Both the position numbers and the translations under genes were made by a program. The notes beneath the pieces are model-generated. The model searched no databases. It saw only the letters and a program-made list of their open reading frames with translations, and was not told where the DNA came from. From Natranaerofaba carboxydovora (GTDB lineage: Bacteria > Bacillota > Natranaerobiia > Natranaerobiales > Natranaerofabaceae), in the NCBI RefSeq assembly GCF_022539405.1, contig NZ_CP054394.1, positions 3,127,833 through 3,159,832 of the forward strand: a DNA stretch of 32,000 bases, in the 5' to 3' direction. Positions 1,073 to 24,646 of this stretch are shown here, one piece after another (the stretch's first letter is position 1; every line of letters begins with the position of its first letter).

Positions 1073-3532
1073 ATGTTTGCAAGATTTACCCAAAGAGCAC
1101 AGAAGGTGATGGCCCTATCACAGGAAGAAGCAAAAAGATTAAAACATAATTATGTTGGAACCGAACATTTGCTGTTAGGGTTAATTAGAGAAGGGGAAGG
1201 AGTAGCTGCCAGGGCTCTTAAGAATCTAAATGCAGATTTAGAAGCAGTTAGAGGTGAAGTAGAGAAGCTTGTGAGTCCAGGAGATGAAGCTCCTCTTGGT
1301 AATGTGGGATACACTCCTAGGGTTAAAACAGTAATAGAACTAGCTATGGATGAAGCTAGACAGATGGGACACAGTTATATCGGGACAGAACATTTGCTTT
1401 TAGGTCTAGTTAGAGAAGGAGAAGGAGTGGCCGCCAAAATATTAACTCAAATTGGAGTTAGCCTTGAGAATACAAGAGCTGAAGTGATGAAAATACTTGG
1501 AAGTAGTGAAAACCAGCCTAAAGATTTAAAAGGAAAACCAAATAAGTCTCAAACTTCAAGCAGTAAAACACCTGCTTTAGATTCCTTTGGTAGGGATTTG
1601 ACACAGATGGCTAAAGAAGAAAAGCTTGACCCTATAATTGGTAGGAGTAAAGAGATACAGAGGGTTATACAGGTACTAAGTAGAAGAACCAAAAATAACC
1701 CCTGCTTGATTGGTGAACCAGGGGTTGGGAAAACTGCCATAGCTGAAGGACTTGCACAAAAAGTAGTCGAAGGAAATGTACCCAAAATTCTTGAAGACAA
1801 GCGCGTAGTAACCCTTGAGTTATCTGCTGTTGTTGCCGGAACAAAATATAGAGGAGAGTTTGAAGAAAGGCTCAGGAGGTTAATTGACGAGTTGACCCAG
1901 GCAGGAGATGTTATCTTGTTTATTGATGAACTTCATACTGTAATTGGGGCCGGTGCGGCAGAAGGTGCAATAGATGCATCAAACATCCTAAAACCTGCCC
2001 TTGCTAGAGGTGAGCTTCAGTGTGTTGGAGCAACTACTCTAGATGAATATAGAAAGCATATAGAAAAAGACTCAGCTCTAGAGCGTCGTTTTCAGCCAAT
2101 TACGGTTGAGGAGCCAACTCAAGATGAGAGTGTAGAAATATTAAAAGGGCTTAGGGATAGATATGAAGCACATCACAGGGTGCAGATAAGCGATGAAGCA
2201 CTAGATGTTGCTGTCAAATTATCTGTTAGGTATATTACAGACAGATACTTGCCAGATAAAGCAATTGATTTGATTGATGAGGCAGCTGCAAGTGTAAGAC
2301 TAAAAACTAACACTACTCCTCCCGATCTAAAAAAGATGGAAGATAGGCTTGAGGAAATTCAAACGGAAAAAGAAGCTGCTATAAAAAGCCAGGATTTTGA
2401 ACAGGCGGCTGAGTTAAGAGATAAAGAGCAAAAAGCCAAAGAAAAGCTTGAAGAGTTAAAAACTGAATGGGAGCAAAAACAAATTTCTGATGAAACTAAA
2501 GTAACTGGTGAAGATATAGCAAAAATTGTATCCGATTGGACAGGAATTCCTGTTAAGAAGCTAGCACAAGAAGAGAGCGAGAGACTTTTGGGAATGGAAA
2601 AAATCTTGCACCAGCGGGTAGTAGGTCAGGAAGATGCTGTCAAAGCAGTATCAAATGCCATTAGAAGAGGAAGAGCTGGCCTAAAAGACCCCAAAAGACC
2701 AATAGGTTCTTTTATATTCCTTGGACCTACTGGAGTTGGAAAAACAGAACTAGCAAGAGCGCTTGCTGAAGCGTTGTTTGCAGATGAAGATGCAATAATT
2801 AGACTTGACATGTCAGAATATATGGAACGCCACACTACTTCTAGATTAGTTGGCTCGCCTCCAGGATATGTAGGACATGAAGAAGGTGGTCAGCTAACAG
2901 AGCAGGTTCGTCGTAGACCTTACTCAGTTATACTTTTTGATGAGATTGAAAAGGCGCATCCCGAAGTGTTTAACACTTTATTACAGGTTTTAGAGGATGG
3001 TCGTTTGACTGACTCCAAGGGAAGAACTGTTGATTTTAGAAACACCGTTATAATAATGACTTCAAATGTGGGTGCAAATACAATAAAGAGTAAGACAAAA
3101 GTAGGGTTTCAACCTGAAAGTCAAGAAGACTCTTATGAGGCGATGAAAGAAAGTATTATGGATGAATTGAAAAACACATTTAGGCCGGAATTTTTAAACC
3201 GTGTTGACGAAAATATTGTATTCCATGCTCTAGAAAAAGAGCATTTAAGAGAAATTGTAGAGTTAATGCTAAAAGAGATCGATGACAGAATGGAAGAATT
3301 TGACATAGAATTTGAAATTACAGAAGAAGCCAAAAAGTATCTAGCTGAGGAGGGCTATGACCCAACTTATGGAGCAAGACCTTTAAGAAGGGCAATACAA
3401 AAGAAAGTTGAAGATGTTTTAAGTGAGAAGATTCTAAAAGGTGACTTTAGTTATGGTGATCAAGTAATTGTTGATGTAGACGAAGATGGTAAAAAACTTA
3501 CATTTCAAAAGAAAGAAGAGGCTAAAAAATAA
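1073..3532 (+). CDS. clpC: ATP-dependent Clp protease ATP-binding subunit ClpC (class III stress AAA+ chaperone)
   Basis: Duplicated Clp N-repeat ([20 protein letters not shown] / [20 protein letters not shown]). Two Walker A motifs ([16 protein letters not shown]) with a UVR-like coiled coil between the AAA modules. RBS GAGAGGTG lies ~9 nt before ATG 1073, so the track's GTG 1064 is less likely. Confidence 0.95.
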
Positions 3533-3533
3533 A

Positions 3534-3580
3534 AAAAACAAATTTTAAGCGGGGTTTTTCCCCGCTTAAAATTTGTTTTT
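3534..3580 (+). terminator. Rho-independent terminator after clpC
   Basis: ~21-bp perfect stem (AAAACAAATTTTAAGCGGGG / CCCCGCTTAAAATTTGTTTT) around a TTTTT loop, ending in a T run, 2 nt after the clpC stop. Confidence 0.85.
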
Positions 3581-3643
3581 AAAATCTTTAGAAGGATTTT
3601 TAACATATTTTTAGAATAATATGAATAATGGTCTAATATTGAG

Positions 3644-4663
3644 GTGGAAACATTGACAAGGCTCGCACTAACTTTTCCTACCACTCATGATATGCTTCGA
3701 GCTGAAACAATTCTAAGTAGTTTCATGAACTGTGAGAACATCCCTGCCCCAAAAGACTCAAAAAGTAAATGTACTACAGCAATTATGATAGAAGAAAATG
3801 ATTTGGAAAAGGCTAAACGATTAATGGAAGTAGAAAAAATAAACTGGGATGAAGTGATAGAGTACTCGATGTCTAAATCTACTAATAGCCAGGAGACACC
3901 AAGTCTTTATGAGAAATTTCTAAAACCATCTCCTGACAATATTTCTGAGAATCAAATCGATCAGAATTATTTATTGAATTTGTTTTATAAAGCGGGAATG
4001 TTGGATAAAAAGGATCTTGATACTTTGTTCTCGCTAGAAAAAAAACAGCTAATTTTTTTTGAAGAACTATTTCTAGACAATCTTAATAACTCGGTATTGG
4101 GCCACAGCTGGATCGTTCCTGTGGGCTATTGCAAGAACCATTGTGAAGGATGTTTTTTGCCTGGACTTAGTGAAGTTAATTTTGAAACACTAAAATGGGT
4201 TGTTAGCCAAATTAAAGAAGGTTTTTCTTACCCTGTTGCTTTTGTTTATGGGGAGCAATTTGATGAAGGTATTTTAAATTATCTGTTGAGTGAATTGAAA
4301 GAATTTAACGACAAACCTTCTTTACTATATTTGGGAAGTGATCCTTTGGGTTTGCCTTTAGACTTACTTTCTCAAGGGACTTCTTTGTCTTGTCATGACA
4401 ATTTATTAAAAATGAAAGTAGATGAAATTATAAAAGAAGTACTCTTTTTGAAAGAGAACACTGACCATACTTTGGCTAGTCAAACCTTTGTGCCAATACA
4501 TGTGAATTATAATCAATTAAATGAACAAGATAAAATAAAACTTAAAAAAACTATAATCGCCCTGAGGCTTGCTCTTGGGGATGGCCCTTTGATAGGTAGC
4601 CCCGAAATAGATGAAATTGATATAGGAGCCATGGGTGAAAACATTAGGTTTAAATGGATTTAA
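3644..4663 (+). CDS. Uncharacterised fusion protein: DUF3343-like N-terminal domain plus a CX3CX2C (radical-SAM-like, BioB/HydE-reminiscent) domain
   Basis: 339-codon ORF. The likelier start is TTG 3653, 5 nt after RBS GAGGTGG. The N-terminal ~65 aa (LALTFPTTHDMLRAETIL...IPAPKD...KCTTAIMIEENDLEKAKRLME) fit the small DUF3343 (putative Se/S-carrier-like) pattern. Cys163-x3-Cys167-x2-Cys170 (GYCKNHCEGCF, nt 4130-4153) is followed by VAFVYGEQF. Same strand as, and 17 nt upstream of, the next ORF, at the head of the acs cluster. Function not established. Confidence 0.5.
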   Translation: METLTRLALTFPTTHDMLRAETILSSFMNCENIPAPKDSKSKCTTAIMIEENDLEKAKRLMEVEKINWDEVIEYSMSKSTNSQETPSLYEKFLKPSPDNISENQIDQNYLLNLFYKAGMLDKKDLDTLFSLEKKQLIFFEELFLDNLNNSVLGHSWIVPVGYCKNHCEGCFLPGLSEVNFETLKWVVSQIKEGFSYPVAFVYGEQFDEGILNYLLSELKEFNDKPSLLYLGSDPLGLPLDLLSQGTSLSCHDNLLKMKVDEIIKEVLFLKENTDHTLASQTFVPIHVNYNQLNEQDKIKLKKTIIALRLALGDGPLIGSPEIDEIDIGAMGENIRFKWI

Positions 4664-4679
4664 AATCGGAGGGTTCTAA

Positions 4680-5207
4680 TTGTTCTTAGACAAAATTGAA
4701 ATAACACAAATTATGCCGTGTATAGCCGATGACGAGAGAATTAGATTTTTTGCAAGGCCTTCAAATGATTTGACAGATCTGCTTCCCTATCTAAATGCCG
4801 TAATGAAAACTGCAACCTATAATAAAAGAGCCCCAAACCTTACCTATACTAAAGAAGAACGACTAATTACTGTATATCCAAATAAAATTGCGGCTGCAAA
4901 AATTTATAATAAAGAAGATGCTATAGATGTAACCCAGGAACTAAAAAAGTTAATAAATGAAGTTTATGAAAAAAAAGATGAAATTGAGCCTCTTTATGAG
5001 CAAAGAGTTAGAATACAGGCTATTGATTTATACAAATGGCTTCCTGGTACTAATTGCAAAGAATGCGGACATCCCACATGCTTAGCTTTTGCAGTTGCTA
5101 TATTACAAAACAAAGCTCGTCTTTCTAGCTGTGCTCCCTTAAAAGAAACAGAAGAGGGGTATAAGGAAGTTGAAGAAATACTAACTAATATTGGTTATGA
5201 GACATAA
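4680..5207 (+). CDS. Uncharacterised protein with a C-terminal AcsC-type Cys4 Fe-S domain (PF04060-like 'putative Fe-S cluster' domain)
   Basis: TTG start 6 nt after RBS GGAGGG. Residues 112-153 (IQAIDLYKWLPGTNCKECGHPTCLAFAVAILQNKARLSSCAPL) align by hand to the AcsC N-terminus in this window (21/43 identical). Cys spacing C-x2-C-x4-C-x16-C is identical in both. The N-terminal ~110 aa match nothing I recognise. Confidence 0.6.
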   Translation: MFLDKIEITQIMPCIADDERIRFFARPSNDLTDLLPYLNAVMKTATYNKRAPNLTYTKEERLITVYPNKIAAAKIYNKEDAIDVTQELKKLINEVYEKKDEIEPLYEQRVRIQAIDLYKWLPGTNCKECGHPTCLAFAVAILQNKARLSSCAPLKETEEGYKEVEEILTNIGYET

Positions 5208-5306
5208 CATTTGGGTCAAATTACCGAATTGTGAAAAAAAGAATTTAAAAAAAACGAAAGGATTTATTTAAAAAATGTCGAACATGAGGAAGGGGTCAAT
5301 TACAGT

Positions 5307-5335
5307 TTGACAGTAATTTAAGAATAATTTATAGA
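5307..5335 (+). promoter_or_regulatory. Candidate sigma-A promoter for cooC-acs genes
   Basis: TTGACA (5307-5312), 17-nt spacer, TATAGA (5330-5335), ~65 nt upstream of cooC. The -35 is embedded in an imperfect 10-bp inverted repeat (TCAATTACAG 5296-5305 / CAGTAATTTA 5311-5320). Confidence 0.35.
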
Positions 5336-5402
5336 AGCCGTTATTATTTTAGACAGAAGTTACTAAACAATGTAAAAATTTCGAATATTTGAGGTGAAAT
5401 GA

Positions 5403-6155
5403 ATGAAGATATCTGTCAGTGGTAAAGGGGGAGTTGGAAAGACCACTATATCCGCTGGACTTAGCAAATTGTTTAGCTCTAAGGGGAGCAGGGTATATGC
5501 AATAGATTGTGACCCGGACGCTAGCTTGGGTCTTGCCTTAGGATTTGATGAAGATAGCTTAGACAGTGTTCACCCACTGGTAGAATTAAAAGAAGAGATA
5601 GACGAGAAGATGGGAGGAGGGGATTTCTATCCTTTAAATCCAAAGGTAGATGATGTGTTAGATAGGTATTCTTTGCAAAAAGGGAATATTAATTTTCTTA
5701 GAATGGGCTCAGTAAAGCAAGGAGGATCTGCCTGTTATTGTAGAGAGAATAGCTTCATGAATGCGCTATTGAATGCTCTGCTACTAGACAAAGATGACAT
5801 TGTAATACTTGACATGGCGGCCGGAATTGAGCATTTGACCAGGGGTACGGCTTCTGGTGTTGACCTTTTATTAATTGTTACAGAGCCTACCAGAACTAGC
5901 ATCAAAACAAGTCAGGTTGTAAAAAACCTTGGTAAAGAGCTGGGCATAAGAAATATTAAGACCATAATTAACAAGCTGCGAACTTCAAAGGAGAGAGAAC
6001 TAATCGAGAAAGCTTTAGATCCCAGAGATATAGCAGGTATTATTGAATATGATGAAGAAATACTTGAGGAGACTTTGTCTGAAGATCAACAAGAAGCAGT
6101 GATTGTTCCCGGATTAGAAGAAATATTCAAGACTATTGAAAAAGAGGTGAACTGA
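5403..6155 (+). CDS. cooC: CODH/ACS nickel-insertion accessory ATPase CooC (AcsF-type)
   Basis: MinD/ParA-type deviant Walker A at the N-terminus (SGKGGVGKTT). CxC motif (ACYCREN) typical of CooC. RBS GAGGTG 6 nt upstream. Immediately precedes acsA. Confidence 0.88.
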   Translation: MKISVSGKGGVGKTTISAGLSKLFSSKGSRVYAIDCDPDASLGLALGFDEDSLDSVHPLVELKEEIDEKMGGGDFYPLNPKVDDVLDRYSLQKGNINFLRMGSVKQGGSACYCRENSFMNALLNALLLDKDDIVILDMAAGIEHLTRGTASGVDLLLIVTEPTRTSIKTSQVVKNLGKELGIRNIKTIINKLRTSKERELIEKALDPRDIAGIIEYDEEILEETLSEDQQEAVIVPGLEEIFKTIEKEVN

Positions 6156-6211
6156 TCCCTCTCCTTTGTGTTGATATTTAAAAGAAACAATTTTTTAAAG
6201 GAGGTAAAATA

Positions 6212-8230
6212 ATGCCGAGATTTAGGGACACAAGTATTAACGCACAACCTAGTAATGCTCCAAAAGAAAGGTTTTTGGATCCTAAGAATAGGGTAAGAAC
6301 TGATGCCGATGGCGAAAAGCAATTGCTTGAAAAAGCAGAGAAAGACAACGTAATAACAGCTTTTGACAGAGCTGTTGCTCAGCATCCTCAGTGCCAGTTT
6401 GGTTATCAGGGGATTTGCTGTAGATTTTGTATCCAGGGACCATGCCGTATCAAAGCCATGGAGGGACCTGGAAGCAGGGGTATTTGTGGAGCTACTGCTT
6501 ACAATATAGTAGCTAGATTCGTTGGTGTAGCTGTTGCTATTGGTGCTTCTTCTCGCTCAGAGCACGGTAAGCATATAGCCCACACATTGCTAGAAGTATC
6601 AGAAGGAAATTATGAAGACTACCAGATTACTGATCCTGACAAGCTAAAGAGAGTAGCCAAAAGATTAGGCGTTGAAACAGAAGGGAAAGACGATCTAAAG
6701 ATCGCTTATGAACTTGCTAATGTAGCCATGGAAGACTTTGGTAACGTAGGAACTAAAGAATCGAACTGGTTAAACTCAATGCTTCCTGAGCCAAGAAAAC
6801 AAAAGTTCAAAGAAACGACAATTATGCCTAAAGGTATTGGCAATACAATTACTGACCAGCTAGCCGCGATTCACATGGGTATGGATGCTGACCCTGTAAA
6901 CAATATTTTTAGTGCGCTTAGAACATCGCTAAGTGACCTTAATGGAATGACAATTGCAAGTGAGTTCTCTGATATTTTATTTGGAACACCAACTCCTTCA
7001 GTTACAGATGCAAACTTTGGTGTTATTGATGAGAAGCAGGTAAACATTGCTCTACACGGTCACAATCCACTATTAAGTGAAATGGTTGTTAAGGCAGCAA
7101 GAGAAATGGAAGATGAAGCAAAGAGCGCTGGTGCAGAAGGTATTAACTTGTTTGGTATTTGCTGTACAGGTAATGAAGTTCTTATGAGACAGCAGATCCC
7201 ACTTGCTACAAACTTTGGTACTCAAGAGCTAGTTATAACTACAGGTGCAGTAGATGCTATGGCAGTAGACGTTCAGTGTATTAACCCAGGTGTTTCAGAA
7301 GCAGCCCAGTGCTACAGCACTAAGCTTATAACTACTGATAAGTTAGCAAAAATCCCTGGTTCATATCATGTAGACTTCAAACAAGATAAAGCTATGGAGT
7401 GTGCTAAGGAAATAATCAAGGTTGCTATTGATGCTTATAAAGACAGAAAAGGAAATGTTGAGATTCCTGAGTATAAGAATAAGCTAGTTGCTGGATTTTC
7501 CGTTGAAAGTATAGAACAAATATTGAGCTCAGTAAACTCAGATAGCCCATGGAAAGTAATAGTTGATGCAATCGAAGCAGGTGAAATAAGCGGAATTGGA
7601 TTCTTAATCGGTTGTAACAACGCTAAGGGCTGGCAGGACCAAAACCATATTGAAATAGCTAAAGAAATGGCTAAAAATAACGTATTAATGGTTTCGACCG
7701 GTTGTGCTGCTGGATCATATGGTAAATATGGATTCTTAAATTCAGATGCAATTGAAAAATATGCAGGAGATGGTCTGAAGAAGTTCTTAGGTCGTCTAAA
7801 CGATAGCGCTGACCTAAATGAAGATTTACCACTGATCTTCCACATGGGATCCTGTGTAGATAACTCAAGAATCGTGGATTTAATCATAAGAGTAGCCAAC
7901 GAAATGGACGTAGACATTCCAAAGGTACCGGTAGTAGGTTCTGCTCCAGAAGCTATGAGTCCAAAAGCTGTTGCTATCGGTAGTTACTTCCTATCCTTAG
8001 GTGTGCCAGTTCATGTTGGAGCTATGCCACCACTTGAAGGAAGTACTATGGTATACAGTATTGCGACTCAAATTGCACACGATGTTTTTGGTGGATACTT
8101 CATTCTTGAAACAGATGCCGATATGGGTGCTAAGAAAATCATGCAGGCTCTAGACTATAGAACCTGGAAGCTAGATGTTCACAAGAAAACTGCCGAGAAG
8201 TATGGAACAAGTCTAGCAAGAGAGTATTAA
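6212..8230 (+). CDS. acsA: Carbon monoxide dehydrogenase, CODH subunit of CODH/ACS (AcsA, CooS family)
   Basis: The N-terminus (MPRFRD...VITAFDRAVAQHPQCQFGYQGICCRFCIQGPCRI) closely matches my recollection of Moorella AcsA, including the B/D-cluster Cys motifs. 672 aa. Strong RBS AAGGAGG. Confidence 0.95.
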   Translation: MPRFRDTSINAQPSNAPKERFLDPKNRVRTDADGEKQLLEKAEKDNVITAFDRAVAQHPQCQFGYQGICCRFCIQGPCRIKAMEGPGSRGICGATAYNIVARFVGVAVAIGASSRSEHGKHIAHTLLEVSEGNYEDYQITDPDKLKRVAKRLGVETEGKDDLKIAYELANVAMEDFGNVGTKESNWLNSMLPEPRKQKFKETTIMPKGIGNTITDQLAAIHMGMDADPVNNIFSALRTSLSDLNGMTIASEFSDILFGTPTPSVTDANFGVIDEKQVNIALHGHNPLLSEMVVKAAREMEDEAKSAGAEGINLFGICCTGNEVLMRQQIPLATNFGTQELVITTGAVDAMAVDVQCINPGVSEAAQCYSTKLITTDKLAKIPGSYHVDFKQDKAMECAKEIIKVAIDAYKDRKGNVEIPEYKNKLVAGFSVESIEQILSSVNSDSPWKVIVDAIEAGEISGIGFLIGCNNAKGWQDQNHIEIAKEMAKNNVLMVSTGCAAGSYGKYGFLNSDAIEKYAGDGLKKFLGRLNDSADLNEDLPLIFHMGSCVDNSRIVDLIIRVANEMDVDIPKVPVVGSAPEAMSPKAVAIGSYFLSLGVPVHVGAMPPLEGSTMVYSIATQIAHDVFGGYFILETDADMGAKKIMQALDYRTWKLDVHKKTAEKYGTSLAREY

Positions 8231-8296
8231 TAAATAAAGGTATCTATTAAAACCTAAGTATAATAATGACCCGACTTTTTGAAAGGAGGATATTAG

Positions 8297-10480
8297 ATGT
8301 CAATTGAAGAGATTTATGAAGGTGCTTTGGAGGAGTTAGAACAGCCACCTAAACCGCTTTTTAAGAAAGCTATAGATGGTGCGATTGTTGCTGTCAGTTA
8401 TGCAGAGATTCTCTTAAACCAAGCGATTAGAGAGTATGGTGAAGACCAAGAGGTAAAGTATCCAGATACTGCTTATTATTTACCTGTAATGACAGCACTT
8501 AGTGGAGAAAAAGTAGAAACTCTTGGGGAGCTACCACCTATATTAAATAGATTACGCCAACAGGTGAGAGAAGAATACACTTTTGAAAATGCAAGATTAG
8601 CCGGGGAAGCTACTCTGTATGCGGCAGAAATTATTGAGGCTCTTAGATATGTAAGAGAAGAGGAACCCCATGTTGAACCATGGTCAGGATTCTTAAGAGA
8701 CCCGATCTTAAGAAAGTATGGAATACAGCTAGTTGACTGGTCTATACCAGGACAGACTGTTATTCTTGGAAGAGCTAGATCTTCTGAAGAAGCTGCAGAG
8801 CTTGTTAGAGATCTACAGAGTAAAGGCATGATGCTCTTTATCGCAGATGAAGTTATTGAGCAGCTGCTAGAGCAGGATATGAAGCTAGGGGTAGACTATA
8901 TTGCCTTCCCTGTAGGTAACTTTACTCAGGTGATTCATGCTGTAAACTTTGCTCTTAGAGCAGGATTAGCTTTTGGTGGTATGCCACCAGGAGAAAGAGA
9001 TCAAGCAAGAGATTATCAGTATAGAAGAGTTCGCTGTTTTGTACTTCATCTTGGTGAGATTGATGACGTAAAAGCTGCAGCTCACTTTGGAGCTATTTTC
9101 CTAGGATTTGCAGTAATAACCGACCAAGAATTACAAGAAGGAATGAGAATCCCAGACTGGTATGAATCAGAACAGGATTACAAGGAAATGGTCAAACTAG
9201 GTATGGAGCTTAGAGGAATAAAAATCGAGACTTCAGAGATTGACGCGCCAATCACAGTTGGACCTGCTTTTGAGGGTGAGACAATCAGAAGAGGAGATAT
9301 GCACGCTGAATTTGGCGGCAAGTCATCTACTGCTTTTGAAGTTGTCCGCATGGTTGAAGATAGAGACGAAATCGAAGACGGCAAGGTGATCCACGAAGGT
9401 CCAGACTTAGACGAAATTGAAGAAGGCGGAACACTTCCTCTAGGAATTATTGTAGACGTTTATGGAAGAAAGATGCAGCGTGACTTTGAAGGTGTTCTAG
9501 AGCGTAGAGTACACGGATTTACTAACTATGGTGAAGGATTGTGGCACGTTGCACAGCGTGACTTCGTTTGGATCAGAGTTAGTAAAGACGCTTACGAAAA
9601 AGGCTTTAGAATGAAGCATCTTGGTGAAATATTAAAAACTAAATTAAAAGAAGACTTCTCACAGGTTATTGACAGAATTCAGGTAACTATTATAACTGAT
9701 GAGAACAAAGTTAACGAAGAAATAGAAGGCGCAAGAGAAAGATATAGAGAAAGAGACGAAAAGATTGCCCAGCTAAATGATGAATCAGTAGATACTTTCT
9801 ATTCATGTCTGCTGTGTCAGTCCTTTGCTCCAAATCACGTATGTGTTATTACTCCTGATAGGGTTGGACTTTGTGGAGCGATCAGTTGGCTAGACGCTAA
9901 AGCGTCTAATGAAATGGATCCTCATGGCCCAAATCAGCCTATACCAAAAGATGGAACTATAGATGAAGAAAAAGGAATGTGGGAAGCTGTAAACGAAGCC
10001 GTATACAAAGACTCAAACCGTAACCTTGAAGAAGTTAACCTTTACACTTTAATGGAAAAACCAATGACTTCCTGCGGTTGCTTTGAGGCCATTATAGCAA
10101 TGGTGCCAGAAGCAAATGGAGTTATGATTACCACAAGAGACCACGGTGGAATGACTCCGTGCGGTATGAACTTCTCAACTCTAGCAGGATCAGTTGGTGG
10201 AGGAGTTCAGACACCTGGATTTATGGGTGTAGGTAGAACCTATATGTTAAGTCCAAAGTTTATTAAAGCTGACGGTGGACTTGCAAGGGTTATCTGGATG
10301 CCAAAGAGCTTAAAAGAATTCCTAGGGGATGACTTAAGGAAACGTGCCGAAGAAGACGGTCTAGGAGAAGACTTTGTTGACAAAATTGCCGATGAAGAAG
10401 TAGGAGAAACTGCTGAAGAGATCTTGTCATTCTTACAAGAAAAAGATCATCCAGCGCTTTCAATGGATCCAATGATGTAA
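8297..10480 (+). CDS. acsB: Acetyl-CoA synthase (AcsB, A-cluster subunit)
   Basis: Near-colinear resemblance to Moorella AcsB, e.g. YAEILLNQAIR, NFENARLAGEAT, GPAFEGE. A-cluster ligand motifs CLLCQSFAPNHVCVITPDRVGLCGA and SCGCFE are present. 727 aa. Confidence 0.96.
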   Translation: MSIEEIYEGALEELEQPPKPLFKKAIDGAIVAVSYAEILLNQAIREYGEDQEVKYPDTAYYLPVMTALSGEKVETLGELPPILNRLRQQVREEYTFENARLAGEATLYAAEIIEALRYVREEEPHVEPWSGFLRDPILRKYGIQLVDWSIPGQTVILGRARSSEEAAELVRDLQSKGMMLFIADEVIEQLLEQDMKLGVDYIAFPVGNFTQVIHAVNFALRAGLAFGGMPPGERDQARDYQYRRVRCFVLHLGEIDDVKAAAHFGAIFLGFAVITDQELQEGMRIPDWYESEQDYKEMVKLGMELRGIKIETSEIDAPITVGPAFEGETIRRGDMHAEFGGKSSTAFEVVRMVEDRDEIEDGKVIHEGPDLDEIEEGGTLPLGIIVDVYGRKMQRDFEGVLERRVHGFTNYGEGLWHVAQRDFVWIRVSKDAYEKGFRMKHLGEILKTKLKEDFSQVIDRIQVTIITDENKVNEEIEGARERYRERDEKIAQLNDESVDTFYSCLLCQSFAPNHVCVITPDRVGLCGAISWLDAKASNEMDPHGPNQPIPKDGTIDEEKGMWEAVNEAVYKDSNRNLEEVNLYTLMEKPMTSCGCFEAIIAMVPEANGVMITTRDHGGMTPCGMNFSTLAGSVGGGVQTPGFMGVGRTYMLSPKFIKADGGLARVIWMPKSLKEFLGDDLRKRAEEDGLGEDFVDKIADEEVGETAEEILSFLQEKDHPALSMDPMM

Positions 10481-10522
10481 TTAATAAGCTCAAAAAAATG
10501 TAAAAAAAATAAACAAGTATAA

Positions 10523-10560
10523 ATCTCTACGGCTCGTGATACTTTGCGAGCCGTAGAGAT
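10523..10560 (+). other. Perfect 14-bp stem-loop between acsB and acsC (no downstream U tract)
   Basis: ATCTCTACGGCTCG (10523-10536), 10-nt loop, CGAGCCGTAGAGAT (10547-10560). Followed by TAAAAATTAT, not a T run. Possibly an mRNA stability/processing element or a weak attenuator. Confidence 0.5.
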
Positions 10561-10595
10561 TAAAAATTATACAAAAAAAGAAAGGGGATGAAACT

Positions 10596-11930
10596 GTGGC
10601 ACTTACAGGATTAGAAATTTATAAGCATTTACCAAAAAAGAATTGTGGAGAATGTGGGCCACCGACATGTCTTGCATTTGCTATGAACCTTGCTGCTGGA
10701 AAAGCGCAGCTAGATTCTTGTCCATACGTTAGTGATGAGGCAAAAGAGGCATTAGATTCAGCTGCAGCACCGCCAATCAAACTAGTAGAAATCGGTAAAG
10801 ACGATAAGAAAGTTGAAATTGGTGATGAAACAGAACTGTTTAGACACGAAAAGAAATTCTTTCACCCGACTTTAGTTGCATTTAAGATAAGTGACAATGA
10901 TAATGTTTCTGATGAAATAAAGAAAATTAATGAGAATTCAACCTATGAGAGGGTTGGACTTGAATACAAGGTTGAACTTGTTGCAATAGAATCAGAGTCA
11001 GGAGATCCTGATAAGTTTAAGCAAGCTGTAGAGACCGTTAAGAACGAAGGAAACCATGCAATGATTCTTATGAGCGAAGACCCTGAGGTGATCAAAGCAG
11101 GGCTTGAAGTAGCAAAAGACGAAAATCCAATGGTATATCCAGCAACCGAAGAAAATTGCGAAAAAATGGTCGAGCTAGTAAAAGATGGTGATTTGCCGCT
11201 AGGTGTTAAAGGAAATAACTTGGAGCAAACTAAAGATCTTGTAGAAAAGATTCACGAGGCTGGTCATAAGAACTTGGTTCTAGACAGCGGTGCAAGGGAG
11301 ACATCTCAAGTAGTTGCAGACATGACCCAGATTAGACGTCAGGCTGTTAAGAAAAAATTCAGGCCATTTGGATATCCGGCTATAGCATTCACTACAAAAG
11401 AAGATCCAATGAAGGAGATAGTCCAGGCTACTTCTTACGTATCCAAGTACGCAGGTATAGTGGTACTACAGTCAGCTCGTGAAAAGGCGGAAGTACTTCC
11501 ACTATTATCTTGGAGACAGAATCTATACACTGATCCACAGAAGCCAATACAGGTTGAGCAGAAGGTTGGCAAGGTTGGCGAGCCAGACGAAAATTCACCT
11601 GTATACATTACAGTTAACTTCTCGCTAGCTTATTATCTAGTTGAAGGTGAGGTTGAAGAGAGTAGAATACCATCGTATATTTTGCCAGTAGATACTGATG
11701 GAACATCCGTCCTGACTGCTTGGGCTGCAGGTAAGTTCTCACCGGAAGCAATCGCCCAAGCCATTAAAGATAGTGGCTTAGAAGATATGGTCTCGCATAG
11801 ACAATTGGTTATACCAGGACACGTTGCGGTATTAAGTGGTAAGCTAGGAGAAGAGTCTGGATGGGAAGTTGTAGTAGGTCCAAGAGAAGCATCAGAAATA
11901 CCTGCATTTGCTAAAGAGAAATTCAAATAA
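10596..11930 (+). CDS. acsC: Corrinoid iron-sulfur protein large subunit (AcsC, CFeSP gamma)
   Basis: GTG start after RBS AAAGGGGA. N-terminal [4Fe-4S] domain LPKKNCGECGPPTCLAFAMNLAAGKAQLDSC. 444 aa. Position between acsB and acsD. Confidence 0.92.
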   Translation: MALTGLEIYKHLPKKNCGECGPPTCLAFAMNLAAGKAQLDSCPYVSDEAKEALDSAAAPPIKLVEIGKDDKKVEIGDETELFRHEKKFFHPTLVAFKISDNDNVSDEIKKINENSTYERVGLEYKVELVAIESESGDPDKFKQAVETVKNEGNHAMILMSEDPEVIKAGLEVAKDENPMVYPATEENCEKMVELVKDGDLPLGVKGNNLEQTKDLVEKIHEAGHKNLVLDSGARETSQVVADMTQIRRQAVKKKFRPFGYPAIAFTTKEDPMKEIVQATSYVSKYAGIVVLQSAREKAEVLPLLSWRQNLYTDPQKPIQVEQKVGKVGEPDENSPVYITVNFSLAYYLVEGEVEESRIPSYILPVDTDGTSVLTAWAAGKFSPEAIAQAIKDSGLEDMVSHRQLVIPGHVAVLSGKLGEESGWEVVVGPREASEIPAFAKEKFK

Positions 11931-11989
11931 AAATAAAGCGATTTCGCCGTATAAATTAAAACCCTAAATGAAAGGAGAGAAGATAAAAT

Positions 11990-12964
11990 ATGTCTTTTTC
12001 ACTAGAGAAAGAACGTTATAGAAGTAAAGTTAGAGAAGTGGTCCTTGGTGCAACTAAAGAGGACGGAGGCACTAGAGGTCACACAATAACAGTAGGAGGG
12101 GAGTCAACCCTTCCCTATCAACACTATGAAGGTGACATGCCTAATACTCCTGTAGTAGGTATGGAAGTTTGGGATATTGTTCCAGAAGGCTGGGAAGATG
12201 AGCTAAAAGAACAATTTAGTGACGTCCTTGATAACCCTGCCGAATGGGCCAAAAAGAATGTAAATGAATATAATGCTGAATTTATATGTTTAAGATTACA
12301 GGGAGCACATCCTGATGAAGGGGATAAATCACCTGAAGAGTGTGTAAAAGTAGTAAAAGAGGTGCTAGAAGCAGTAGATGTACCAATTATGGTATATGGT
12401 TGTAGAAAAGAAGAAAAGGATAATGAAGTAATACCGAAGGTGGCTGAAGAGGCTTCAGGAGAAAACCTGCTTTTAGGTGTTACTGAGGAAGAAAACTATA
12501 AGTCAATTACAGCTGCTTGTATGGTTCACGGTCATACAGTTATTGCTAAATCACCGATCGACATAAATATTTGTAAGCAGTTAAATATTCTAATAAATGA
12601 AATGGGCTTAGATACTGGCAAGATAATTATTGACCCAACTATTGCAGCGCTTGGATACGGTATTGAGTACGGATATTCAATTATGGAAAGAGCAAGAATG
12701 GGAGCCCTTCAAGGGGACAATATGCTTGCTATGCCAATGATCGGTATGATCGGCGAAGAAGCATGGAGAGCTAAAGAGACGAAAGCACCTGAATCAGACT
12801 TCCCTGGCTGGGGAGAGCAAAAGACCAGAAGTATCCTTTGGGAGGCTGTAACTGCATCATCCTTACTACAAGGCGGCCTTGATATTCTAGTTATGCGTCA
12901 TCCAAAGGCAGTTGAAATGGTAAAGGAGAATATCGAAGAGTTAATGCAAGATAACAGTTATTAA
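11990..12964 (+). CDS. acsD: Corrinoid iron-sulfur protein small subunit (AcsD, CFeSP delta)
   Basis: 324-aa TIM-barrel-type protein directly after acsC. RBS AAAGGAGAG. Size and position are canonical for AcsD. Confidence 0.88.
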
Positions 12965-12975
12965 TTTAAATATAA

Positions 12976-13785
<810 letters not shown>

Positions 13786-13866
13786 ATTGCAGTAAAAGTA
13801 GAGTTGCAGGGCTAGTTTGTGCAGAAAATTATTCAAAGAAAAGATTCCGTCTATTATAGTAGAAAA

Positions 13867-13914
13867 AGAGGAGACGCTCGGTGGACAGCTCGCTCGGGAG
13901 GGTCTCCTCTTTCT
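13867..13914 (+). terminator. Rho-independent terminator after acsE
   Basis: GC-rich stem AGAGGAGAC (13867-13875) / GTCTCCTCT (13902-13910), with additional inner pairs, followed by TTCT. Confidence 0.7.
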
Positions 13915-14146
13915 ACCATTTAGACCACATGACTTATAAGTGAAAAGAATACTAAAGTGAAAAAAATTACAGGACTTGTTGGTGACTACAATGTAGAATT
14001 AGTGTCGTAGTGTTTTTTCTACTATGATGACATGGAAGTAATAAGAACACCTAGAAAATATATATCATGAATGTAGTGAACTGGGTGTTATTTTTATTCG
14101 TCATGATAAGATACACTTTTATAAAGACCCTCTAAATACCTCAATA

Positions 14147-14175
14147 TTGAAAGCTTATCCTTAGAGTGCGATATT
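14147..14175 (+). promoter_or_regulatory. Candidate sigma-A promoter for metV-metF (would give a ~240-nt leader)
   Basis: TTGAAA (14147-14152), 17-nt spacer, GATATT (14170-14175). No experimental support; other AT-rich hexamer pairs exist in this region. Confidence 0.25.
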
Positions 14176-14420
14176 TTGATTTAAGTGATAAGGTTGTTCC
14201 ATTTTAAGAAGTTAAAAAAGTTGCATATACTACCATCTATTACCGGTTGGCACAAATAAGCCTGGGGTGTATGCTAATGGTGCATGCAAAAAACTAGATT
14301 TTTTATGGACTAACTCACGTATAGAATTGGATTCGTAAAATTCATCGCCTTGCATGTGAATGCTGTGTTATGTGTGTAGCACCAGAGGAATTTAGGTCCA
14401 ATAGAAGGGAAGGTGTCGAA

Positions 14421-24608: not shown

Positions 24609-24646
24609 AAATTGGTGTTATAATTATGTGGGGAGTGAGTATAAAA

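Follow-up and report, generated by a model that had tools for sequence, protein, structure and literature searches.

Radical S-adenosylmethionine (SAM) enzymes are defined by a CX3CX-phi-C motif, a GGE motif, a ribose motif in beta4, a GxIxGxxE motif in beta5 and a further motif in beta6; the three-Cys loop after beta1 binds a site-differentiated [4Fe-4S] cluster, and the aromatic residue before the third Cys contacts the adenine of SAM. HydE, one of these enzymes, attacks the Cys sulfur of an Fe(Cys)(CO)2(CN) synthon. Maturation of the C-cluster of carbon monoxide dehydrogenase (CODH) and of the A-cluster of acetyl-CoA synthase (ACS) is only partly understood and, to our knowledge, nickel-inserting ATPases and metallochaperones are the only factors known. 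DUF3343 proteins have been proposed to carry selenium or sulfur: their genes cluster with those for selenocysteine (Sec) lyase and YedF, and one Cys in them is strongly conserved (Lin et al. 2015, PMC5322559). Here we describe gene X, which lies in a 32,000-nucleotide stretch of the Natranaerofaba carboxydovora genome (contig NZ_CP054394.1, positions 3,127,833 to 3,159,832; the window) and encodes a DUF3343 domain fused to a domain that is likely related to HydE. N. carboxydovora is a soda-lake acetogen, and gene X, followed by the gene of a partner protein of 175 amino acids (aa), precedes its CODH/ACS (acs) gene cluster. As an explanation of the whole, we tentatively favor a lineage-restricted, two-domain Fe-S/thiol protein that is paired with the partner and has as its client the metallocluster system of CODH/ACS and the corrinoid iron-sulfur protein (CFeSP).

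The open reading frame (ORF) of 339 open codons that a preliminary description of the window had placed on the acs strand was confirmed at 3644-4663 (+), where the opposite strand is crowded with stop codons, and only its start required correction. The longest-ORF start, GTG 3644, lies inside a Shine-Dalgarno sequence, GAGGTGG (3641-3647, +), that is invariant in all four lineages in which the gene was found; the position equivalent to TTG 3653 is ATG (in two relatives) or TTG; and NCBI calls the gene at 336 aa. For these reasons TTG 3653 is almost certainly the true start, and gene X (3653-4663, +) encodes 336 aa rather than the 339 aa counted from GTG 3644. Its product, protein X, is 100% identical to the NCBI "DUF3343 domain-containing protein" of N. 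carboxydovora and comprises a DUF3343 domain, a variable linker and a HydE-like, apparently degenerate domain. The motifs pointed out earlier, GYCKNHCEGCF (Cys163-x3-Cys167-x2-Cys170), VAFVYGEQF and FVPIHV...IIALRLALG, are all present, and they are not a product of chance, since they have been kept by relatives at saturated synonymous divergence (proportion of synonymous differences, pS, 0.65-0.88 between lineages). Downstream of Cys170, 169 aa follow, fewer than the roughly 175 first estimated. The possibility of a pseudogene was ruled out by the intact ORF in four lineages, the saturated synonymous divergence and a proportion of nonsynonymous differences (pN, 0.33-0.42) lower than pS.

The N terminus had been suspected of following the DUF3343 pattern, and this was borne out by a match to PF11823 (Se_S_carrier) that runs from position 4 to position 68 of the 69-position profile (E 2.1e-12; 46.8 bits, where the cutoff is 25). 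The domain spans aa 9-72 (3668-3859, +), and PF11823 is also above the gathering threshold in the relative P0002. Rather than the single Cys reported before, it contains two that are invariant, C30 and C43. C43, in an SKCTTA motif, is conserved in all four lineages and corresponds both to the canonical Cys of DUF3343 and to the "SC" of the DUF3343 domain in P0164, a fusion protein considered below. In an AlphaFold2 (AF2) model built on the four-sequence alignment, the domain is arranged as beta-alpha-beta-beta-alpha-beta with predicted local distance difference test (pLDDT) scores of 68-80. A sequence search of the PDB yielded no DUF3343 relative, and a Foldseek search with the same model gave only generic ferredoxin-like matches for the N-domain, at E 0.05 or worse. 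The linker that follows (3860-3985, +) is variable in length and poorly conserved in the alignment, with pLDDT scores of 31-43 in the model.

The C-terminal domain of about 235 aa matched nothing at threshold in Pfam and NCBIfam scans. Its best sub-threshold matches were PF04055 (Radical_SAM; E 0.066, in one of the four members) and Fer4_12 (E 0.2, in the window protein); PF04055 gave no match for the window protein, and its threshold was not reached by any of the four members. The sole PDB sequence match was PylB (phmmer, E 0.82), aligned on the Cys motif (YCKNHCEGCF / YCKNQCSFCY). Matches of the domain profile to RecA and to a mannosyltransferase in the PDB were dismissed as spurious. When the four-member C-domain alignment was compared by hhalign with an alignment of 30 HydE homologues, a probability of 82.9% was obtained (E 9e-6, 169 collinear columns), whereas controls with reversed alignments and 30 column shuffles gave scores of <=22.5 and probabilities of <=1.5%. 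The Thermotoga maritima HydE used for comparison is identical to PDB 3cix_A. Four landmarks fall in register, namely the N-terminal helices, the beta-strand with its Cys loop, VYGE with QSGED, and LFLKEN..FVPIH with LFLKEH..FIPHP. MAFFT, which used no profile information, produced an identical register and extended it to IIALRLALG / MVALTRILLP.

The HydE-collinear segment (3986-4501, +) thus aligns aa 115-286 with HydE residues ~12-234. Within it, C163-x3-C167-x2-C170 (4130-4153, +) falls on C63/C67/C70 of HydE, Y202-G203-E204 (4247-4255, +; YGD in one lineage) is the counterpart of the radical-SAM GGE motif, S-G-E in HydE, and LFLKEN...FVPIH (4442-4501, +) is that of the alpha5/beta6 stretch. 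We consider it likely, on this sequence evidence, that the C-terminal domain is homologous to HydE-type radical-SAM enzymes, and the resemblance to BioB/HydE barrels that had been sensed in its C-terminal part fits both the hhalign result and the match to PylB.

Likewise, the departures from these enzymes are informative. The three-Cys loop has the spacing CX3CX2C in three of the four lineages, and the residue before the third Cys is not aromatic, as had been remarked, but Gly (CEGC, CRGC and CRGC). In the fourth lineage the spacing first given for the motif does not hold: an inserted Arg (CHYRC) turns it into CX3CX3C, and this recurs in five independent assemblies. A GGE-type motif is retained, V-Y-G-E being aligned with Q-S-G-E-D of HydE by both hhalign and MAFFT. 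In the MAFFT alignment some 40 HydE residues (beta3/alpha3/beta4, GVAVTLSLGE...DRYLLRHET, with the RxET ribose motif) find no counterpart, the beta5 GxIxGxxE position reads TSLSCHDNLL, and protein X lacks the final ~100 HydE residues, among them the auxiliary-cluster Cys. The occurrence of two distinct disruptions of one SAM-contacting position in sister lineages suggests that the constraint of SAM binding has been lost and the Cys ligands kept. The domain is, then, probably a radical-SAM-derived [4Fe-4S]-binding module impaired for SAM. In other words, of the radical-SAM reading in the preliminary description the ancestry stands by hhalign, but a working enzyme is doubtful given the missing aromatic residue, beta3/beta4 unit and beta5 motif. 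The replaced beta5 stretch contains C250 (4391-4393, +), a candidate fourth cluster ligand that could complete an all-Cys ligation. C250 is invariant, as are C163, C167 and C170 in this domain and C30 and C43 in the DUF3343 domain, six Cys altogether.

Protein X is confined to very few organisms. An exhaustive HMMER search with the C-domain profile against 1.84 billion representatives recovered homologues from four lineages in total, one protein each, all with the same two-domain architecture. A word-indexed search found one relative only, and GTDB genomes and JGI metagenomes, when scanned, yielded just further copies of one of the four lineages, JGI contributing a partial copy of P0004. The gene order ctsR-mcsA-mcsB-clpC / X / 175-aa Fe-S protein / cooC / acsA... 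is shared by all four, so that the neighborhood check called for in the preliminary description found acs genes beside every X, in what amounts to one ancestral arrangement. Among the representatives searched, no X homologue stood away from adjacent acs genes, and X was absent from all other acs clusters. Across the lineages, protein X is 40-48% identical, compared with 88-92% for ClpC and 74-93% for the partner, CooC and AcsA-E. The nonsynonymous divergence (dN) is 0.43-0.61 for gene X, 0.11-0.18 for the partner and cooC, and 0.06-0.08 for clpC. Gene X is therefore real and under purifying selection, as pN lower than pS (0.65-0.78) indicates, and yet, with its high dN, it is by far the least constrained gene of the cluster. 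A comparison of loci L003 and L006 for dN/dS on a recent timescale was dropped, the two being identical sequences from the same organism.

The partner gene (4680-5207, +) begins 16 nt after gene X (4664-4679), one fewer than counted before, and 25-41 nt after it in relatives. The short gap and the Shine-Dalgarno sequence GGAGGG of the partner gene (4668-4673, +) imply translational or operonic coupling. The partner consists of an N-terminal domain of ~110 aa with an invariant C14, for which Pfam has no model, followed by an AcsC-type four-Cys [4Fe-4S] domain (aa 121-153; nt 5040-5138) that matches PF04060 (E 1e-13). A profile of its family found PDB entries 2h9a and 4djd (E ~1e-12 to 1e-11; 3e-12 for 2h9a), in both cases at the N terminus of the CFeSP large subunit. 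Identity among the four lineages is 78-80%; the wider family, with more than 1,000 matches at 41-53% identity, is annotated as "(Fe-S)-binding protein" or, by JGI, as "ArsR family metal-binding transcriptional regulator." Loci L010, L012, L013 and L014 carry partner homologues, L013 having two paralogues in one cluster.

Support for a functional tie between the two proteins comes from P0164, a metagenomic protein of 275 aa (locus L009, 505-1332) in which a DUF3343 domain (E 1e-16) is naturally fused to the partner family (PF04060). By the Rosetta-stone argument, this fusion connects the DUF3343 domain of X with the product of the gene that follows. In Geosporobacter, a partner homologue directly follows the gene for a class-V aminotransferase. 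The fusion, the aminotransferase neighbor and the association of DUF3343 with Sec lyase support a possible relay between the two proteins that would involve thiol/persulfide and Fe-S groups, although this evidence by itself does not tie the pair to CODH/ACS. The 253-aa gene that follows the P0164 fusion was considered as a split-off HydE-like domain and rejected, since it encodes an unrelated lipoprotein-like sequence. About 3 kb downstream of P0164, on the same strand, lie hypC and hypD of [NiFe]-hydrogenase maturation.

The link of protein X to CODH/ACS is positional: a constant place before cooC, the lack of intervening terminators, the AcsC-like domain of the partner and the presence of X only beside acs genes. 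Upstream of gene X lie mcsB and clpC, which ends at 3532, and a strong, bidirectional hairpin terminator with a 20-bp stem and a T-run (3534-3580) closes the ctsR-mcsAB-clpC operon; an equivalent hairpin stands behind clpC in L003. A promoter-like site for the X-partner unit, TTAACA-18-AATAAT (3600-3629, +), agrees with the consensus at 10 of 12 positions and is a consensus match only; the block GGAGGATTTTTAGCATAATTTTAGAATAAT at this site is conserved in L001 and L002. No terminator was found in the 195-nt spacer between the partner gene and cooC. The cluster cooC-acsA-acsB-acsC-acsD-acsE (5403-13785, +; Pfam assignments) follows, and cooC (5403-6155, +) is a gene separate from X. Because the pair has its own predicted promoter past the clpC terminator and no terminator before cooC, CODH/ACS/CFeSP would be the most likely client.

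In the mechanism that we envisage, the C-domain would descend from a HydE/PylB/BioB-type enzyme by loss of about one beta-alpha unit, of the C-terminal third of the barrel and of several SAM-contacting motifs. It would still bind a [4Fe-4S] cluster but probably no longer carry out canonical SAM cleavage. The DUF3343 cysteines might deliver or accept sulfur, in the form of a persulfide, or a thiol-bound ligand at this cluster. Protein X would form a pair with the 175-aa partner, whose gene is translationally coupled to that of X and which bears the AcsC-type [4Fe-4S] domain, and the pair may act on the CODH/ACS/CFeSP metallocluster system in assembly, repair or redox activation, a client suggested by position alone.

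Several observations weigh against this interpretation, some of them against the ancestry of the C-domain. The four-sequence C-domain hidden Markov model found no radical-SAM protein among PDB chains or the 1.84 billion representatives. When hhalign was run on separate pieces, that before the Cys motif scored 19.3 and that after it 23.7, the shuffled maximum for the latter being 19.0; as the pieces score weakly one by one, the claim of homology depends on several weak landmarks being collinear. The unbiased AF2 model from four sequences has a mean pLDDT of 52 and is good only for the DUF3343 domain, the C-domain lying at 23-50 over most of its length. A model seeded with HydE sequences reached a pLDDT of 70 and a predicted template modeling score of 0.70, with HydE, HydG, ThiH, BioB and PylB as best PDB matches (TMq 0.45-0.55), but the seeding makes this result circular. 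The profile and structural checks proposed earlier had a mixed outcome: DUF3343 was found and HydE was reached by profile-profile comparison, but no family was matched at threshold by the C-domain and its unbiased model is poor.

Other points bear on the client. Gene X is the fastest-evolving gene of the cluster, its dN being 3-7 times that of its neighbors, which is unusual for a core maturase. The synteny of the four lineages counts as one observation because it is a single shared ancestral arrangement, so that the part in CODH/ACS maturation or cofactor handling assigned to X in the preliminary description agrees with acs linkage in all four lineages but draws on position and on one ancestral event. 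Between the partner gene and cooC, a non-coding block of ~65 nt (5228-5297, +; TTGTGAAA...AAAACGAAAGGATTTATTTAAAAAATGTCGAAC...GGGGT) is kept in the four lineages despite saturated synonymous sites. It is probably a promoter-proximal operator, another regulatory site or a leader of the acs genes, and together with promoter-like sites before cooC it suggests that acs has a promoter of its own. A scan of 3400-5500 with Rfam assigned no family to the block and returned only chance miRNA-type matches on the clpC terminator. Finally, wider relatives of the partner outside acs clusters occur in the arrangement ArsR - ArsP_1 permease - Thioredoxin_3 - thioredoxin - DsbD_TM - SBF/ACR3.

This last context underlies the alternative that survives best, in which the pair would be a module for thiol, metalloid or redox stress with no relation to CODH/ACS. 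It would just happen to lie between the clpC stress operon and the acs operon in this lineage, and a separate promoter would drive acs. Partner homologues of 41-53% identity either reside in such arsenic- and thioredoxin-type clusters or have ACR3 and xanthine-dehydrogenase-like genes as neighbors, and the JGI name for these homologues refers to an ArsR-family metal-binding regulator. In a high-GC metagenome-assembled genome of the PVC group (L007, 6001-10350), for instance, a 45%-identical homologue stands between an ACR3-type transporter and a Mo-hydroxylase pair. The latter pair is xanthine-dehydrogenase/aerobic-CODH-like, with an FAD/2Fe-2S subunit and a large subunit. The conserved block with the promoter-like sites upstream of cooC and the single ancestral event behind the synteny would also be accommodated. 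However, X is found only where acs follows, the stretch from the partner gene to cooC contains no terminator, the partners linked to acs resemble one another closely (78-80% identical) and stand apart from homologues of at most 53% identity, and the [4Fe-4S] domain of the partner has its closest counterpart in the N terminus of AcsC. On balance we regard an independent stress module as somewhat unlikely.

A second alternative, which we judge to be unlikely, is that X is an active minimal radical-SAM enzyme that would cleave SAM to attack a Cys- or sulfur-bound species on its own DUF3343 domain, much as HydE attacks its synthon, yielding a product to build or repair a Ni-Fe-S cluster of CODH/ACS. 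HydE and PylB as nearest relatives, CX3CX2C at the HydE position in three of four lineages, the GGE-like YGE, the purifying selection and the location beside cooC/acsA are all compatible with such an activity. Against it stand the lack of an aromatic residue before Cys3, the deletion of the beta4 ribose region and the replacement of the beta5 GxIxGxxE, the CX3CX3C of one lineage, which alters the geometry of the cluster loop, a fourth invariant Cys that could fill the unique Fe site, the failure to reach PF04055 and a dN that is very high relative to the neighbors. Its most specific form, in which a working HydE-like X would use a Cys or persulfide tethered to DUF3343 to provide the CODH/ACS Ni-Fe-S clusters with sulfur or with a metal fragment bound to Cys, seems very improbable, though if true it would establish a new, radical-based class of CODH/ACS maturase that mechanistically parallels H-cluster biosynthesis.

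It is also quite unlikely that the C-domain is a novel alpha/beta fold, non-homologous to radical-SAM enzymes, in which a CX3CX2(3)C + C site would have arisen by convergence to bind a metal or cluster: the lack of a significant HMMER match to any radical-SAM protein, the weakness of the single hhalign pieces, the low-confidence unbiased model and the variable spacing of the third Cys would fit, but the four collinear landmarks are jointly given a probability of 83% against <=1.5% in controls, and the helix/strand order of that same unbiased model agrees with the HydE register.

The surroundings of the pair are unusual as well. In Firmicutes the usual order is ctsR-mcsA-mcsB-clpC-radA-disA, as in Bacillus subtilis. 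Here, about 21 kb interrupt this order between clpC (ending at 3532) and radA (starting at 24626), carrying X, its partner, cooC-acsABCDE, metVF, a class II ribonucleotide reductase, sir2, rtcB and other genes. GC content is higher in the acs genes (0.39-0.42) than in gene X (0.33). Past acsE come a metV-like gene and then metF. In the 585 nt that separate acsE from this metV-like gene (13786-14369), what is left of an HdrA-like FAD/Fe-S oxidoreductase gene survives in frameshifted form at ~13814-13925 (tblastn, 21/28 identities, E 1e-9, with a continuation in another frame), the intact gene being located directly after acsE in L003. A publicly annotated 39-aa gene between clpC and X (L003, 9853-9972; also in L004 and L005) overlaps the terminator hairpin at 9863-9897 and is probably spurious.

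In conclusion, protein X joins two known kinds of protein, DUF3343 and, probably, the HydE clade, in an architecture that occurs in four haloalkaliphilic lineages only. In the literature that we searched, neither an account of this architecture nor one of DUF3343 in acs clusters was found, in agreement with the earlier remark that no characterized acs accessory protein built in this way was known. If X serves CODH/ACS, this fusion of a HydE-derived Fe-S domain with a sulfur carrier, placed as the first gene ahead of the acs genes, would represent a new candidate accessory factor. It would also exemplify the natural reduction of a radical-SAM barrel to a cluster-binding module. Given the restriction to four lineages and the fast evolution, the pathway cannot depend on X in general. 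Of wider use may be the association of DUF3343 with PF04060 proteins, adjacent here and fused in P0164, as a lead to the function of two large uncharacterized families.

Set beside its nearest known counterparts, protein X shares features with each and coincides with none. With HydE (PDB 3cix/3iiz) and the PylB, BioB, ThiH and HydG clade it has in common the N-terminal helices, a strand followed by the three-Cys loop at an equivalent position, a GGE-type motif behind the next strand, an alpha5/beta6 stretch that reads "LFLKE(H/N)...F(I/V)P(H/I)" and the subsequent "ALxRLxL" helix. In contrast to HydE, it has no aromatic residue before Cys3, lacks ~40 aa (beta3/beta4) and the C-terminal ~100 aa, reads S-L-S-C-H-D-N in place of the beta5 motif, has an extra invariant Cys and a fused DUF3343 domain, occurs in an acs rather than a hyd context and does not match PF04055. 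With the small DUF3343 proteins (PMC5322559) it shares a match above the Pfam threshold and the conserved Cys, C43. Typical members, however, are stand-alone proteins of 80-100 aa encoded beside Sec-lyase, YedF or YedE genes, whereas in protein X this is the N-terminal domain of 336 aa, fused to an Fe-S-type domain of ~235 aa and equipped with a second invariant Cys, C30. P0164 unites in one chain the two families that are encoded here by adjacent genes, but it is a single example, lacks a HydE-like domain and resides outside an acs context, among CBS and PKD genes. Like the CODH/ACS factors CooC/AcsF (P-loop ATPases), CooT, CooJ and RACo, X is encoded in or beside an acs/coo cluster and may handle metalloclusters; it differs from all of them in showing no sequence relation and, by Pfam and NCBIfam, no P-loop, His-rich tail or ASKHA domain.

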